Assembly: GCA_964629655.1 (NCBI GenBank)
Contig: CAZVQU010000002.1
Coordinates: 76,643 to 140,642, forward strand
From: an uncultured Planctomycetia bacterium
GTDB lineage: Bacteria > Omnitrophota > Gorgyraeia > Duberdicusellales > 4484-171
Reading direction: 5' to 3'
DNA length: 64,000 nucleotides
A program made the position numbers and the translations under genes. The notes beneath the pieces are model-generated. The model had not been told where the DNA came from. It did no database searches and saw nothing but the letters and a program-made list of their open reading frames with translations. This document shows, piece by piece, positions 10,768-17,211 of the stretch. Every line of letters begins with the position of its first letter. The stretch's first letter is position 1.

Positions 10768-11212
10768 ACTTGCCCTTATCGGGTTCTGGTTTTTCTCTTC
10801 AGGACTCCTCTTAGCCGAAGCCTTACCCTTAGGGATAGGAGAAAAAATAATTGACGTTAAGGTCAATAAGAGAAAAGTCGAAACCGGTGAAATTTTTACC
10901 TACGAGATAATCGTGCAGGGAAACTTAGAATCATCAGCCCAATTAAAATTGCCGGAGTTTAAAAATTTTAAGGTTGTTTCCCAAAGCCAATCCCGGAACT
11001 ATTCGACCAAGGGCGGTGTAGCGAAAACAACTATCAACTTTTCTTACCATATTTTCGCCCCTAATCCTGGAGTCTATACTATTGAACCGGCTATCCTTGA
11101 GAGTGGAGAGAATAAATACCCGAGCCGGGCAATCACCATAAAGGCTAGAGGAAAACCCTTGGAAGAAAAGAGAAAAATCCTCCCTTACATTGAAAAAGGA
11201 ACAAATCTTTAA
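10751..11212 (+). CDS. BatD-like N-terminal-domain secreted protein
   Basis: Signal peptide and weak similarity to the BatD N-domain. Much shorter than full BatD. Confidence 0.35.
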   Translation: MSKLFKLALIGFWFFSSGLLLAEALPLGIGEKIIDVKVNKRKVETGEIFTYEIIVQGNLESSAQLKLPEFKNFKVVSQSQSRNYSTKGGVAKTTINFSYHIFAPNPGVYTIEPAILESGENKYPSRAITIKARGKPLEEKRKILPYIEKGTNL

Positions 11213-12036
11213 AATTCTACTTTAGATAAAGGAGCAAGGTTCTCAGGAGTATAGACTCTTACATCACCAGTCAAAAGGTTATTCACCTCTATCTCGTCTA
11301 TAACCCCGGGAGAGTTATAGATATCTAAAACTTCCTTTGTTGCCATTCTAGCTTCATCAAAAGGGTCTATTAATCCCTCTTGGGGTTTAGTTATTTTTAT
11401 ATTGAAATTTACTTTTAAATTATTGCCCCAATAGTGGGTAGAAACTTTGTTTAGTTGAAAATTCTCATTGAGCAAAGGTGAGTTAAACTTTTTTTCAAGA
11501 TCCTGAGCCACCAACGAAGCAATAAATTCACCAAGAGGTATATCATACTCCTGCATATGGGCACCGTAGAAATCACCGGCTGCATTTGGATTTGAAAAAG
11601 AAACGAAGACCGTTCTCCTGTTGCGTTCCTCATGAGAGATAAAACCTAAATTAAATTTTACCATATCAGGGATATACCCTATTGTGTAGGCATCGAAACC
11701 GATTTCCTTTATGCTTGAGGCCAAGATACAATAGAATTTTGGCCGATCTTCCATGCTTAAAAATACCCGGCCTAGAGTAAGTAAAATCTTTACCCAGACA
11801 TTTTGGACATCTTCACTCCATTGCCCATCTTCGGTAATCAATTCCTCCAGCGGCGCATAAACCCAGATAGTCTCACCAGATAATCTAGGCCTAACAAGAA
11901 CATTAAACTCATCTTTGCAGATGTCCCGTATTGATTTCTGAATATTCTTGCGCGAGTGAGTGGCAGGGATTGTGCAAGATGAGAGAAAAATTAGAATAAG
12001 GCTAATTAGGAGAGTTTTGGGAACGTTCTTTGCCAT
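11209..12036 (-). CDS. Hypothetical lipoprotein
   Basis: MAKNVPKTLLISLILIFLSSC lipobox. The longest ORF runs to 12102 and would overlap ftsH. No SD is visible for any candidate start, so the start is uncertain. Confidence 0.45.
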   Translation of the reverse strand: MAKNVPKTLLISLILIFLSSCTIPATHSRKNIQKSIRDICKDEFNVLVRPRLSGETIWVYAPLEELITEDGQWSEDVQNVWVKILLTLGRVFLSMEDRPKFYCILASSIKEIGFDAYTIGYIPDMVKFNLGFISHEERNRRTVFVSFSNPNAAGDFYGAHMQEYDIPLGEFIASLVAQDLEKKFNSPLLNENFQLNKVSTHYWGNNLKVNFNIKITKPQEGLIDPFDEARMATKEVLDIYNSPGVIDEIEVNNLLTGDVRVYTPENLAPLSKVEF

Positions 12037-13681
12037 GCCTTTTAAATATTTCAACAATCTCATCATATTCAAGTTCGCTCTTTTGAAGTAATTCTTTTGC
12101 AAAATATTCCAAGAGTTCTTTCTCGCTATTTAATATTTCACTAACCTCATTAAGGCAGTTTTTTAATATCTTCTGCACATCACCATCAATCTTACGCTTC
12201 GTCTCTTCTGAGAGAGGAGAAGCTTGACCGTAAGATAAAGAGGGATTTAATGCCTCGAAATTACCTAAAATACCACTTTCGCCCATACCGTAACGATAGA
12301 CCATGTCATGAGCAAGTTTTAAAGCCGAATCAAAATCACCGGACACGCCTGAGCTAGTAGTCCCGAATTTAGCTTTCTCAGCCGCATACCCACCTAAACA
12401 AGTTTTAATATTAGCAATAAACCACTCTCTTGACGGTGCATACATTTCTTCCTTGGGTCTATGGCCTACGTAGCCCAGAGCACCTCGACGCGGAACAATT
12501 GAAGCCTTTATAACATCGTCAGTAGGATGAGTGAGGTAGGCAACAATTGCGTGGCCGGATTCGTGGTAAGCAGTCCACTTTTTTTCTTTTTCACTCAAAA
12601 CAATCTGGCTCTGCAAACCAAAGACTACCCGATCGTAAGCCTCAGAGAGATCCTTGTAGGTAATCTTCCCGCACTTATTGCGAATAACAATCAAAGATGC
12701 CTCACGTACCATATTGGCAATATCAGCCGGAGAAAAGCCTATGGTTCTCTTAGCTAAAACACCGCTATCGATTTCAGGATCAGACTGAGCCTTGCTCAAA
12801 TAATATTCAAATAATTTCTTTCTATCTTCAAGTCGGGGTTTGCTTACATAAATTTTACGATCAAACCGACCGGCCCGCATAAGCGCCGAATCCAATTCAC
12901 TCTCACTGACATTAGTAGCAGCAACAACTACAATATTGTTCTCAGTCTGACGCAAACCATCCATCTCGGTAAGAAGCTGATTCACCGTAGCGTTATACGA
13001 CATGCCGCCGCCGAAACCTGAAACTCCAACTCGGGGACGAGCTATGGTATCAATTTCATCGATAAATACAAGACAACCGCCATGAAGATCAGCCAAGGCT
13101 CTGGCTTCTTTGAATAAAGACTTTAGGCGAGCTGCCCCCATGCCTACGAACATACCCATAAACTCACTTCCAACAGTTGCTAAAAAGGGGAGGCCAGTCT
13201 CAGTCGCAAGTGCTTTAGCTAAATAAGTCTTACCACAGCCAGGGGGCCCTGACATAAGAATACCTTTGATAATCTTTCCGCCAACACGTTTAAGCTGAGT
13301 TCGGTCTTTAAGTAAGCTTATTACCTCAGCTACTTCCCGTTTAGATGACTCCATCCCAACGACATCAGACCACTTTACATTCACGCTAGCACTTTTTATT
13401 CTTTTCTGGCCCATCTTAGTTAAACCACCGCCAAACATAAACCAATAGTGAAAGCCCATGTATATACTGGCAAAAGCAATTGCTGTGACTATAGCCATAA
13501 ACATCTGAAAAGGGATGCTAGCCAGGGTAGTCCGCTTATAGAATGACTCTAGCCCTATAAATTGTTGAATTCCAATAACCAGTAGGAAGACCACTCCTGA
13601 GACAAGGATAAGGAGAAGAGTAATCAGAACAATTTTTAGCCAGTGCGATTTAATTAGTTTTCCGAGGTTTTTGCCAGTCAT
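12002..13681 (-). CDS. ftsH: ATP-dependent zinc metalloprotease FtsH (short periplasmic loop)
   Basis: Walker A GPPGCGKTYLAKA, Walker B LVFIDEID and zinc site HESGHA. Two N-terminal TM helices are separated by only ~15 residues. Confidence 0.85.
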   Translation of the reverse strand: MTGKNLGKLIKSHWLKIVLITLLLILVSGVVFLLVIGIQQFIGLESFYKRTTLASIPFQMFMAIVTAIAFASIYMGFHYWFMFGGGLTKMGQKRIKSASVNVKWSDVVGMESSKREVAEVISLLKDRTQLKRVGGKIIKGILMSGPPGCGKTYLAKALATETGLPFLATVGSEFMGMFVGMGAARLKSLFKEARALADLHGGCLVFIDEIDTIARPRVGVSGFGGGMSYNATVNQLLTEMDGLRQTENNIVVVAATNVSESELDSALMRAGRFDRKIYVSKPRLEDRKKLFEYYLSKAQSDPEIDSGVLAKRTIGFSPADIANMVREASLIVIRNKCGKITYKDLSEAYDRVVFGLQSQIVLSEKEKKWTAYHESGHAIVAYLTHPTDDVIKASIVPRRGALGYVGHRPKEEMYAPSREWFIANIKTCLGGYAAEKAKFGTTSSGVSGDFDSALKLAHDMVYRYGMGESGILGNFEALNPSLSYGQASPLSEETKRKIDGDVQKILKNCLNEVSEILNSEKELLEYFAKELLQKSELEYDEIVEIFKRHGKERSQNSPN

Positions 13682-13837
13682 AAAATCACCTTATTTACAA
13701 TACCATAGATCCCGGAATTTGTCCATATAGCAGACGCCCCGAAAAATAAAAAAAACTCTTCCAAAGCTTAAAAAACCGTTTATAATATGAACGTAACAAT
13801 ACGTGGTTTGGAAACTAAACAGGCAAGGAGGCCCCGG

Positions 13838-14497
13838 ATGAAAAAAGAATTTCAGAAGCTTTCTTTTATTCTGTGTTTTACTTTGGGTTTTACATTTCTT
13901 ATTGTAACTATTGCTTTACCGGAACAGCTTACTCTCACCACCTATTATCCTTCTCCTTACGGAGTCTACGCAGAGCTCCGGGCACAACAAATGGCCATAG
14001 GAGATGCCTATTATGATCAAGCTACATATCCGACTATTGATGCCAATGCCGATTTAATAGTAGAGGGCCGCGTCGGCATCGGGATGGTGGCTCCCACTGA
14101 AATGCTGGAAATCTCGGGTGGAAAGTTAAAAGTGGCTAGCACAATAATTGATGACGGTGATATAAGCCGTTCCGATAGTGGCATTCTTAGTTTGGGTTCA
14201 GCAACTACAGTTGCAGTGGCATCTGTCCCTCCTTTTTCCGCGCCAATAATGCTTGATTCAGACAATGGTTCATTTCTTGTTAACCCAGCTGGGACTTCTG
14301 TATTTGACACAATTGATTTAAATGGAGAGTCTCGAAACAATTGGTCGATCAAGCAATGGAAACTTGTAAGCTGCACAGGGGTTGGTGCTGGCGGTCATTG
14401 CACACCAGCTTGCGGTGCTGGTTGGAGCTTAATTAGTAACATGGCAATTTCATCTTATGCCTATTGGACACATGTCGGGTTGTGTAAGGAAAACTAA
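13838..14497 (+). CDS. Secreted Cys-rich hypothetical protein, paralog 1
   Basis: Signal peptide, ANADLIVEGRVGIG motif and C-terminal CTG...HCTPACGAGWSLIS...WTHVGLC. ATG with AAGGAGG at -6. ~60% identity to paralog 2. Confidence 0.7.
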   Translation: MKKEFQKLSFILCFTLGFTFLIVTIALPEQLTLTTYYPSPYGVYAELRAQQMAIGDAYYDQATYPTIDANADLIVEGRVGIGMVAPTEMLEISGGKLKVASTIIDDGDISRSDSGILSLGSATTVAVASVPPFSAPIMLDSDNGSFLVNPAGTSVFDTIDLNGESRNNWSIKQWKLVSCTGVGAGGHCTPACGAGWSLISNMAISSYAYWTHVGLCKEN

Positions 14498-14529
14498 GTT
14501 CAAAAACAAAACAGGCAAGGAGGCCCTGG

Positions 14530-15210
14530 GTGTTTAAATTAAAAACCTTTACTCTTTTTTTTCTCTCGGGTTTCTTTTTGCTAGCCTCTAATTCCAGTGC
14601 TTTTGCCGGAACAGTCACCTTCACCACTTTCTACCCTATACCTTTTGGGGTTTACGACGAGCTCCGGGTAAAAAGAATGGCCATAGGAGATACCTATTAT
14701 GAACCATCTTCATATTGCTGGCCCGGTGGTCCTTGTGGATCTTCGAATATTGATGCTAATGCTGATTTAGTAGTCGAAGGCCGCGTCGGCATCGCAACAA
14801 TGACTCCCTCCGAAAGTCTGGAAATTTTAGGTGGAAGGTTAAAAGTGGCTAATACAATGGTAGATGCTAACGGGATAAACCGTTCCGATAATGGCACTCT
14901 TACTTTGGGTTTAACAACTACAGCTGCAGTGGCATCTGTTCCTCCTTTTTCCGCACCAGAAATGATTGATTCAGACAATGGTTCCTTTCTTGTTAACCCA
15001 GCTGGGACTTCTGTATTTAACATAATTGAATTAGGTGGAGTACAGCGGAGCACTTGGCCGGTCGAAGGATGGAAACTTGTATCATGCACCGGAGCTGATG
15101 CTGATGATCATTGCACGCCAAGTTGTGGTGCTGGTTGGAGCCTAATCAGCGATATACCAATCTCATCTTATGACCATTGGACACATCTTGGATTGTGTAA
15201 ACAAGATTAG
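14530..15210 (+). CDS. Secreted Cys-rich hypothetical protein, paralog 2
   Basis: GTG start with identical leader (aaacaggcaaggaggccctgg). Same motifs as paralog 1. Confidence 0.7.
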   Translation: MFKLKTFTLFFLSGFFLLASNSSAFAGTVTFTTFYPIPFGVYDELRVKRMAIGDTYYEPSSYCWPGGPCGSSNIDANADLVVEGRVGIATMTPSESLEILGGRLKVANTMVDANGINRSDNGTLTLGLTTTAAVASVPPFSAPEMIDSDNGSFLVNPAGTSVFNIIELGGVQRSTWPVEGWKLVSCTGADADDHCTPSCGAGWSLISDIPISSYDHWTHLGLCKQD

Positions 15211-15266
15211 AAATATCTAAAAGAAATATCTTGCCAAAGTTACCCTATATGCTATAATTCCTGCCT

Positions 15267-16259
15267 ATGGATTTTGAACAGAAAAGCCCGGATGAAATCT
15301 TACAAAGCTTAAAGGAAAAGTTTAATTTCCGCAAACCGCAAGGTGCCGGTCTGCCGTTAATAGTAGGAATTTTTCTTATTATATTCCTTTTAAAAGGAGC
15401 CTTCTACACTATCCAGCCCAGCGAAGTAGGAGTAATCTTGCGTTTCGGTAAATTCGTAAAAACTACTTCACCAGGCCTTCATTTTAAACTGCCGCTGGGA
15501 ATTGAAAAAGCGATTCCGGTACCGGTAGAAAAAATCTACACCAGTGAGTTTGGGTTTCGAACCCGCTCAGCAGGCGTAAAAACAGTATATAGCCAAAAAT
15601 CATACGACGATGAGTCCTTAATGCTTACCGGGGACTTGAATGTCTTGGACTTAGAGTGGATTGTCCAATTTAAAATAAAGGACCCTTTTATGGCCTTATT
15701 CAATGTCCGCAGCGTTGATAAAACAATAAGAGATATTTCAGAATCAGTTATGCGCAGAATTGTTGGCAACCATGCTTTTAATGAGGTGCTTACTACTAAG
15801 CGTATCGATATAAATAACCAGGCTCAAGATGAGATGCAAAAAATTCTTGATTCCTACGGAATTGGGATTCAAATTGTAAAAATTAAATTACAGGACGTTA
15901 ACCCTCCTAAACAGGTAAAGCCGGCTTTTAACGAAGTAAACCAAGCAAAACAGGAAAGGGAGAAGCTAAAAAACCAAGCCTGGGAGGTATATAATCAAAA
16001 AATACCTCAGGCTAAGGGTGAAGCCTTGAAAAGGATTAGGGAAGCTGAAGGGTATGCCCTTGAAAAAATTAACAGAGCCAAGGGTGATGCCAAGAGGTTT
16101 CTTCTTTTGTACGAAGAATATGCCAGGGCTAAGGAAGTAACTTCCAGACGTCTTTATCTGGAACAGATGCAAGACGTTTTAACTAAAGCTGGTAAAAAAT
16201 TTATAGTTGATCCTAAAGAAAAAGGGATTTTACCTTTACTAAAGCTGGGAAATGAATAA
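15267..16259 (+). CDS. hflK: Protease modulator HflK (SPFH/band-7)
   Basis: SPFH domain and the HflK-type coiled-coil tail NEVNQAKQEREKLKNQAWEVYNQ. Confidence 0.75.
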   Translation: MDFEQKSPDEILQSLKEKFNFRKPQGAGLPLIVGIFLIIFLLKGAFYTIQPSEVGVILRFGKFVKTTSPGLHFKLPLGIEKAIPVPVEKIYTSEFGFRTRSAGVKTVYSQKSYDDESLMLTGDLNVLDLEWIVQFKIKDPFMALFNVRSVDKTIRDISESVMRRIVGNHAFNEVLTTKRIDINNQAQDEMQKILDSYGIGIQIVKIKLQDVNPPKQVKPAFNEVNQAKQEREKLKNQAWEVYNQKIPQAKGEALKRIREAEGYALEKINRAKGDAKRFLLLYEEYARAKEVTSRRLYLEQMQDVLTKAGKKFIVDPKEKGILPLLKLGNE

Positions 16260-17211
16260 CAAAAACTTAGGCTTAATTATTCCGATTATCATTGTGGTCC
16301 TTATTCTAATAGGCAACCCGTTTTATATTGTTGGAGAAGGAAAGCAAGCAATAATTACTCAATTTGGCCAGCCTATCGGTGATCCGGTAAGTTCTGCCGG
16401 CCTGCATTTGAAACTTCCTTTCATTCAAAAGGTTACTTCTTTTGAAAAGCGGATATTGGAGTGGGATGGTTTTCCCAGTGAAATACCTACAAAAGACAAA
16501 CGATACATCTGGATAGATACTACTGCTCGCTGGAAAATAGTTGACGCCCTGAAGTTTTTCAAATCTGTTGCTAACGAAAGGGGCGCTCACGCAATACTTG
16601 ACGGTATAATTGATGCTGCTGTTAGGGATGCTGTTACCGCCCAAAATTCAGTCGAGGTTGTACGTTCGTCAAATCGGCTAATTCAGATAATTCAGAAACA
16701 AAAAATACTGTTAAAAGAAGAGTTCATTGACGAGGGAGCCTTAGCAACCATAAGAATGGGCCGAGAAAAAATTAGAAAAGAGATTGTCGAAAAGGCAAGA
16801 AACGATTTAGGTACACGCTATGGTATTATGCTTATAGATGTGCGGATTAAAAGAGTGAACTATATAGAGAAAGTCCGGCGTAATGTCTATGAACGGATGA
16901 TTGCTGAACGAAAACGGGCTGCCGAGCAGTATCGTTCAGAGGGAAGGGGTATTCGCGCAGAGGTCGAGGGAAAAACCGAGAAAGAGCTTAAAGAAATTCT
17001 GTCTAAAGCTTACAAGAAATCTCAGGAAATCAAAGGTGGCGCTGATGCTGAATCTACCAAGATCTATGCTGACGCTTACAATAAAGACCCTGAATTTTTC
17101 TCTTTCCTGAAAACCTTGGAGACCTATAACGCAACCGTAGATGAAGATACTACTGTTATTCTTACTACTGAAGGAGAATACTTTAAATATTTAACTGATA
17201 TCTCTCCCTGA
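16252..17211 (+). CDS. hflC: Protease modulator HflC
   Basis: N-terminal TM helix and SPFH domain. Start overlaps hflK. Confidence 0.75.
   Translation: MNNKNLGLIIPIIIVVLILIGNPFYIVGEGKQAIITQFGQPIGDPVSSAGLHLKLPFIQKVTSFEKRILEWDGFPSEIPTKDKRYIWIDTTARWKIVDALKFFKSVANERGAHAILDGIIDAAVRDAVTAQNSVEVVRSSNRLIQIIQKQKILLKEEFIDEGALATIRMGREKIRKEIVEKARNDLGTRYGIMLIDVRIKRVNYIEKVRRNVYERMIAERKRAAEQYRSEGRGIRAEVEGKTEKELKEILSKAYKKSQEIKGGADAESTKIYADAYNKDPEFFSFLKTLETYNATVDEDTTVILTTEGEYFKYLTDISP

Follow-up and report, generated by a model that had tools for sequence, protein, structure and literature searches.

What are the two small cysteine-containing proteins encoded side by side between ftsH and hflKC in this Omnitrophota genome, and what accounts for their close resemblance to each other? 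The Omnitrophota are uncultured, mostly ultra-small bacteria that are thought to live as predators or parasites. The window, the whole 64-kb stretch of DNA analysed here, carries gene A (13838-14497, plus strand; 219 aa plus stop, ATG start) and gene B (14530-15210, plus strand; 226 aa plus stop, GTG start) on the same strand and 32 nt apart. An earlier reading of the same letters, hereafter the original prediction, had described them as tandem paralogues of 220 and 226 aa with about 60% identity. A BLASTP comparison of gene A with gene B bears out the paralogy, with 62% identity over 203 aa (E=5e-88). The length given for gene B is correct, whereas gene A has 219 residues when read from the ATG at 13838, which is the start that follows AGGAGG; the listed open reading frame (ORF) opens earlier, at 13787. 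The pair is no near-orphan novelty: A and B are members of a large, unnamed, multi-copy family of Omnitrophota proteins that have an N-terminal module (N-module) in common.

A profile built from the A/B pair and two relatives was searched against 1.84 billion cluster representatives and gave 8,265 matches at E<=1e-3, of which 1,258 reach E<=1e-10 and 89 reach E<=1e-30; a hidden Markov model (HMM) of the N-module recognizes gene A at E=1.3e-28 and gene B at E=5.8e-35. Nearly all matches cover profile positions ~1-110 alone. The shared part consists of a signal-peptide-like segment followed by xITITTYYPSPYGVYxELRxxRMAIGDNYxxxxxYCWxxxxCxNxIDANADLVVEGNVGIGTxxPxxxLxVxG, and both A and B display the pattern that marks membership, [TS]x[YF]YPxPx[GS]xY...R..A.G...Y after a signal-like N-terminus. 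This N-motif is found in 140 of 151 proteins, where its median start is residue 32, after a hydrophobic stretch with a median maximal Kyte-Doolittle value of 2.8 and an AxA-like end; in A and B it starts at residues 32-33. The median length of family members is ~295 aa. Database names of the relatives all read 'hypothetical protein', and no Pfam domain falls on the N-module. When one genome per species (GTDB) was scanned, 246 loci were confirmed by tblastn, and the best 80 of these belong almost all to 'Candidatus Omnitrophota' or to placeholder-named Planctomycetia metagenome-assembled genomes. A genome often has several family loci (the 1.82-Mb chromosome CP070807.1 carries six such genes or more), and tandem arrays of two or three members occur at 12 loci or more. 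The genes that surround them are unrelated housekeeping genes, among them GGDEF, purB, alaS, valS, recA/recX, miaB and purL.

Which known proteins does the N-module resemble? Against PDB sequences the profile found as its top match the Bdellovibrio protein Bd2133 (8OND, E=3.3e-6, in three stretches), followed by 8OJN, 8ONB and 8ONC and then by 8OML. All matches to these structures, which are of mosaic adhesive trimer (MAT) fibres, run through the DLVVEGxVGIGTxxPxxxLxVxG segment, and a full-length family member that bears an S74 domain gives matches to 8OND and, through its S74 region, to MyRF. The segment corresponds to what has been described as the capping loop of the trimeric beta-helix, which has the consensus V-G-G/N-pi-x-x-P-x-x-x-L and occurs in MyRF as well (Caulton et al. 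2024, PMC10769870). The suggestion in the original prediction that GRVGIG...L.V resembles a motif of tail fibres or beta-helices was thus correct in kind. The MAT family numbers 21 paralogues, 13 of them in an S74 and 8 in a non-S74 subfamily, and all possess a signal peptide and a conserved domain at the N-terminus. The proteins are displayed on the surface and carry diverse tips that may be swapped (PMC10769870). Members include Bd2133, Bd3182, Bd1334, Bd2439, Bd2734 and Bd2740 (PMC10769870; PDB 8OND, 8OJN, 8OML).

The likeness between the two families extends over several features. Both are multi-copy families of a predatory or host-dependent bacterium, and in both a signal peptide is followed by a conserved N-terminal part. 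Both contain the capping-loop motif VGxG/NxxxPxxxL, the comparison and the direct profile match concerning the motif and not the trimeric helix. Both fall into S74-ended and non-S74 subfamilies with highly diverse, swappable tips, and disulfide-containing, beta-rich tips are known among the MATs (Bd1334). The N-terminal parts differ in extent: ~45 aa precede the first capping loop in the Omnitrophota proteins, in contrast to the ~130-aa N-domain of the MATs, whose PDB entries are limited to C-terminal parts. A further difference is that the A/B tip has no detectable relative, and surface display and binding by A and B would be expected by analogy. The weakest profile matches include unrelated fibre proteins that have only the repeat motif in common, for example P0034, P0075 and P0101. 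These three proteins are 2,200-3,600 aa long and have dozens of capping-loop motifs alternating with ILIPKGxTxQRPxxPxxGHIRYNTxxNxFEGYG units; they lack the N-module.

Beyond the N-module the divergence of the family is complete. Clustering 130 representatives by their final 90 aa gave 69 clusters, of which 59 are singletons. Among 147 representatives, 31 end in a Peptidase_S74 domain and three have a Peptidase_G2 autoproteolytic cleavage domain, while Gp53-like_C, YadA_head and UspA1_rep are each found in single members; several members match tail-fibre PHROGs. Polymorphic toxin systems, too, typically show tandem arrays in which a conserved N-terminus is joined to hypervariable C-termini. Could the family consist of secreted effectors or bacteriocin-like toxins, with the N-module as a secretion or delivery domain and the cysteine-stabilized C-terminus as a toxic or signalling payload? 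This architecture fits, the proteins are small, cysteine-containing and apparently secreted, and one family member has a weak ApeC-like tip. The tips that can be recognized are S74, the Peptidase_G2 cleavage domain, Gp53-like_C, YadA_head and tail collar, and no toxin domains are among them; nor does a small immunity-like gene follow the members, whose neighbours are housekeeping genes. We regard the toxin explanation as unlikely.

The same tips bring to mind phage fibres and autotransporters. Phage S74 fibres and tailspikes, such as the K1F endosialidase and the T5 L-shaped fibre, and tail-collar fibres resemble the family in their capping-loop or fibre motifs and in the S74 domain of its S74-ended members, and one family protein at the same ftsH-hflK locus of a related contig (L022, described below) has a tail-collar-fibre-like tip. 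In contrast to phage fibres, the family genes are chromosomal, encode Sec signals and lie among housekeeping genes, and the pair in the window has no PHROG, Pfam or S74 match. A and B might on these grounds be remnant tail-fibre genes of a prophage or a tailocin, for which the motif-level likeness and the S74 chaperone domains of the family speak. This origin is very improbable: no phage genes lie nearby, a search of 2.9 million viral contigs found no N-module relative, the GC content of the genes (0.43-0.45) equals that of their flanks, the locus is conserved between housekeeping genes and Sec signal peptides are atypical for virion proteins. Trimeric autotransporter adhesins such as YadA and UspA1 are modular trimeric adhesins anchored by a C-terminal beta-barrel. 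The family is likewise modular, and single members contain YadA_head or UspA1_rep; the conserved part is N-terminal here, however, and no membrane-anchor domain was detected.

How are A and B themselves built? In gene A a signal-peptide-like segment with a basic N-terminus and a hydrophobic stretch (aa 1-27; 13838-13918, plus strand) is followed by the N-module (aa 28-92; 13919-14113, plus strand), which reads LTLTTYYPSPYGVYAELR..MAIGD..IDANADLIVEGRVGIGMVAPTEMLEISG and has one capping-loop motif, and by the lineage-specific tip (aa 116-219; 14183-14494, plus strand) with Cys 179, 188, 192 and 216. Gene B has the same order: a signal-peptide-like segment ending in SSAFA|G (aa 1-26; 14530-14607, plus strand), the N-module (aa 27-99; 14608-14826, plus strand), whose Cys63-Cys69 loop reads YCWPGGPC and which has one capping-loop motif, GRVGIATMTPSESLEILG, and the tip (aa 123-226; 14896-15207, plus strand) with Cys 186, 195, 199 and 223. 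The capping-loop motif thus occurs once per protein, as RVGIGMVAPTEML in A and RVGIATMTPSESL in B. The signal regions of both read as basic, hydrophobic and AxA-like, and together with the four tip cysteines they agree with the earlier description of secreted proteins with a cysteine-containing C-terminus. Type IV pilins or pseudopilins were considered and rejected, as the N-termini are Sec type I-like and have no class III signal (G|F/M-x-x-x-E; no G-F-T-L-x-E), and so were lipoproteins, A and B having no lipobox.

The YCW-x4-5-C loop, whose cysteines C63 and C69 are at least 90% conserved in the family, is present in gene B and deleted in gene A and in its orthologue in the related contig L001; the difference maps to 14020-14035 of gene A against 14716-14757 of gene B. 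The loop is dispensable in at least one lineage, because it is missing from gene A and this orthologue, and a minority of other family members also lack it (YSWDS variants). The tip of both proteins follows the pattern VPPFSAP...NPAGTSVF...CTG-x5-HCTPxCGAGWSLIS...GLCK with four conserved cysteines, which likely form two disulfides, judging by the sequence. All the motifs listed in the original prediction are present (ANADL[IV]VEGRVGI[GA], VPPFSAPxMxDSDNGSFLVNPAGTSVF and CTG-x5-HCTP[AS]CGAGWSLIS...WTH[VL]GLCK); the stretch before VPPFSAP, described there as glycine-rich, is not really so. Relatives of the tip were seen in the window and in the related contigs L001 and L002 only: a local HMM of the tip found just the four known copies, a tip-only scan of metagenome contigs gave no match and a word-indexed search of 5.8 billion proteins with A and B returned only four relatives. 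Searched alone against Pfam, NCBIfam, PHROGs and PDB sequences, A and B had no match, and neither matches the C-terminal intramolecular chaperone Peptidase_S74 in Pfam (PF13884, SDxxxK motif). AlphaFold reached a pLDDT (its per-residue confidence score) of 35 with a four-sequence alignment and a mean of 62 for the monomer with 45 sequences, the latter being confident for residues 180-226 alone (pLDDT 86-91). The last ~45 aa of gene B are predicted as a three-stranded sheet, and comparison of the predicted fold gave no fold match.

Based on these observations, we propose a model in which A and B are short, non-S74, MAT-like surface fibres or adhesins, each composed of a conserved base and a lineage-specific tip. 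We hold this reading, which combines sequence likeness with analogy, with moderate confidence, and the rival explanations weighed here are less well supported than it is. A and B would be exported by the Sec route and their signal peptides then cleaved. The N-module proper (~45 aa), the only part common to the whole family, may act as the base through which each protein docks, be it to a shared element of the cell surface or to an export and assembly route, as its invariance, its position and the analogy with MATs suggest. The capping-loop segment, DLVVEGRVGIGxxxPxExLEI, has motif homology to the MATs and is proposed to form a short trimeric beta-helix stub, while the tip of ~100 aa, stabilized by disulfides, would bind a ligand. 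Displayed on the surface as MATs are, the exchangeable tip could recognize a structure on the surface of a host or prey cell, or some other substrate. The proteins of the family probably function as exchangeable 'grappling hooks' for attachment to other cells.

A number of points weigh against this model. MATs are ~1,000 aa long as opposed to the 219 and 226 aa of A and B, so that the pair falls far short of them in length. A single capping-loop motif in place of long beta-helices, together with the lack of S74, makes a trimeric fibre less certain in their case. Searches of PDB, Pfam, NCBIfam and PHROGs brought up no relative for the first ~45 aa of the N-module, and the family neighbourhoods searched contain no recurring partner gene that might be a candidate anchor or exporter. 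The model does not account for the route of A and B across the outer membrane, and for every family member the case for a fibre is built from sequence and prediction.

What are the implications of such a family for the Omnitrophota? Viewed through its sequences, it appears to be an unannotated, phylum-wide set of MAT-like fibre proteins in miniature, recognizable by their distinctive N-terminal module, to which the pair in the window leads. Host attachment in this phylum has been discussed mainly in terms of pili and giant ORFs (PMC10066038, bioRxiv 10.1101/2023.11.21.568195). S74 or fibre proteins are mentioned neither in these two papers nor in the 2026 complete-genome survey of Omnitrophota, and a full-text literature search for Omnitrophota with 'tail fiber' gave no match. 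A phylum-wide, multi-copy family with a shared base and swappable tips offers concrete and tractable candidates for host-recognition proteins; its members are short enough to express and their tips can be compared between near-identical genomes. It would also extend the principle of the Bdellovibrio MATs to a second predatory or host-dependent lineage. A bolder extension of the model can be put forward tentatively, and we consider it possible rather than probable: the N-module might be an undescribed, Omnitrophota-specific surface-anchoring or sorting domain that mounts a large and rapidly exchanged repertoire of tail-fibre-like tips on ultra-small cells, independently of giant proteins and pili. 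On this view, tandem duplication, conversion and the replacement of cassettes at hot spots, the ftsH-hflK position being one, would bring about the exchange of tips, and, if this is true, it would be mainly this family that determines to which hosts or prey an Omnitrophota cell can attach.

Does the position between ftsH and hflKC carry a meaning of its own? The pair lies as the original prediction described, divergent from an FtsH-type protease gene (12002-13681, minus strand; AAA 2.7e-35, Peptidase_M41 4.8e-46) and directly upstream of a pair of HflK/HflC-like Band_7/SPFH genes (15267-16259 and 16252-17211, plus strand; Band_7 domain matches). L001 and L002, metagenome contigs from two different Joint Genome Institute (JGI) samples that were assembled independently, both carry ftsH, gene A', gene B' and hflK in this arrangement, with FtsH 96% identical to that of the window. 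The same ftsH/hflK locus is found in the related contigs L022 and L065, the latter from Ca. Susulua stagnicola, where FtsH is 88.6% and HflK 86-95% identical to the proteins of the window; across the window, L001, L022 and L065 the ranges are 88.6-96% and 86-95%, respectively. The assignment of the window to the Omnitrophota rests on such flanking proteins, 86-96% identical to those of Omnitrophota contigs. L022 and L065 have a single family gene between ftsH and hflK, and only its ~100 N-terminal aa are shared with A and B (43-53% identity). The tip of this gene resembles tail-collar fibres in L022 (phrog_8469 3e-16, phrog_1800 2e-8) and looks like a coiled coil, on sequence inspection only, in L065, and in L063 a family gene with a different Cys-rich tip adjoins ftsH. 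The ftsH-hflK position is a replacement hot spot at which tips are swapped, and an IS30-like transposase ORF between ftsH and the family gene of L065 (L065:4253-5254) fits a position prone to rearrangement.

A family gene thus recurs at this position in five related contigs or more (the window, L001, L002, L022 and L065), and L063 adds a case of ftsH adjacency. This could also be read as a functional tie, in which A and B are envelope or periplasmic proteins connected with FtsH/HflKC membrane quality control, for instance as substrates or accessory factors. Most family members, however, lie elsewhere beside unrelated housekeeping genes. At this locus, moreover, the tip changes between flanks that remain 86-96% identical, which is how a variable cargo at a hot spot behaves and not a co-evolving partner, and the transposase gene of L065 occupies the same spot. 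The hflK gene also has a strong promoter-like site of its own directly upstream, a sigma-70-like match at 15231-15258 (TTGCCA, 16 nt, TG-TATAAT; 11/12), an indication that hflKC has a transcript separate from that of the fibre genes. A functional link of the pair to ftsH/hflKC is accordingly not supported, and we think such a role quite improbable.

How did the two copies arise, and what explains their shared leader? The same leader does precede both start codons, with the end of the AGGAGG Shine-Dalgarno sequence 6 nt from the start in each, as first described; it is 21 nt long and not 22. It reads AAACAGGCAAGGAGGCCCYGG and has two exact matches in the window, against a shuffle expectation of 0.00: AAACAGGCAAGGAGGCCCCGG at 13817-13837 (plus strand), in front of the ATG of gene A, and AAACAGGCAAGGAGGCCCTGG at 14509-14529 (plus strand), in front of the GTG of gene B. 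In L001, gene B' is preceded by a similar leader, AAACAAGCAAGGAGACGCTGG. A four-way DNA alignment of A, B and the L001 genes A' and B', in which informative sites were grouped and sliding identity was followed, revealed a mosaic. Within a 109-bp tract at 14174-14282 of gene A (plus strand), equivalent to 14887-14995 of gene B (plus strand), A equals B at 97 of 109 positions, and 22 sites pair the paralogues within each genome (A with B as against both L001 genes), while none group by orthology. In the flanking segments, 5' (13858-14090) and 3' (14310-14500), the informative sites follow orthology, A falling with A' and B with B'. Because sites group by paralogue inside the tract and by orthologue outside it, the tract is the product of gene conversion between the tandem paralogues.

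The tandem pair arose by local duplication of a single gene at the conserved position between ftsH and hflKC, and conversion between the copies left both the near-identical leader and the 109-bp tract. The leader, which had struck the original prediction as engineered-looking, is the ribosome-binding region of the duplicated unit, and its near-identity reflects homogenization by conversion and not design. Taken jointly, the membership of A and B in the Omnitrophota N-module family and conversion as the explanation of the leader are, in our judgement, nearly certain. An artefact of assembly, with a repeat collapsed or expanded, or an engineered construct might produce identical leaders and a tract that is 89% identical. 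At the protein level, however, identity between the copies is only 62%, and L001 and L002 hold a separate orthologue of each; the recurrence of the same tandem pair in these contigs answers the concern about a collapsed repeat that had been voiced at the outset. Sites that group by orthology, moreover, flank the conversion tract, and the probability of an artefact is negligible. As a result of tandem duplication with gene conversion the pair itself is unexceptional, and duplication, gene conversion and cassette replacement diversify the tip repertoire.

Are both copies still maintained? Relative to the L001 orthologues the ratio of nonsynonymous to synonymous substitution rates (dN/dS) is 0.40 for A and 0.49 for B, and both genes are therefore maintained as coding under purifying selection, the constraint being rather relaxed. 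Two ORFs run antisense to them, one of 119 aa over gene A (14017-14376, minus strand) and one of 130 aa over gene B (14697-15089, minus strand). We judge both to be non-coding, because family homologues exist for the sense frame but not for the antisense frame. The earlier suggestion that they are by-products is plausible; antisense ORFs opposite the N-module occur in 15 other family loci. A candidate -10 element for an A-B transcript, TATAAT, can be read at 13781-13786 (plus strand), which is weak evidence; a weak TTCCAA lies 16 nt upstream, and the promoter scan did not report the site because its -35 element matches at only 3/6 positions. TATAAT likewise occurs upstream of the orthologue in L001.

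Two further features of the locus were observed. In L001 a 157-bp element (L001:5129-5285, corresponding to L002:5226-5382) has terminal inverted repeats of ~14 nt, AACCCCGTTAGAGAA...TTCTCTAACGGGGT; its predicted fold is strong (-49.5 kcal/mol). The element sits in frame after codon 4 of the gene-A orthologue, between the start codon and the signal peptide, and may inactivate or re-target that copy of gene A. By its sequence it looks like a miniature inverted-repeat transposable element (MITE); no other copies were found in the DNA compared here. Downstream of ftsH in the window, a 297-aa ORF (11209-12102, minus strand) as listed overlaps the 3' end of ftsH by ~100 nt. Its true start probably lies further downstream, because the L001 orthologue is called at 278 aa. 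The product has no Pfam match, and the gene is kept beside ftsH in five related contigs.

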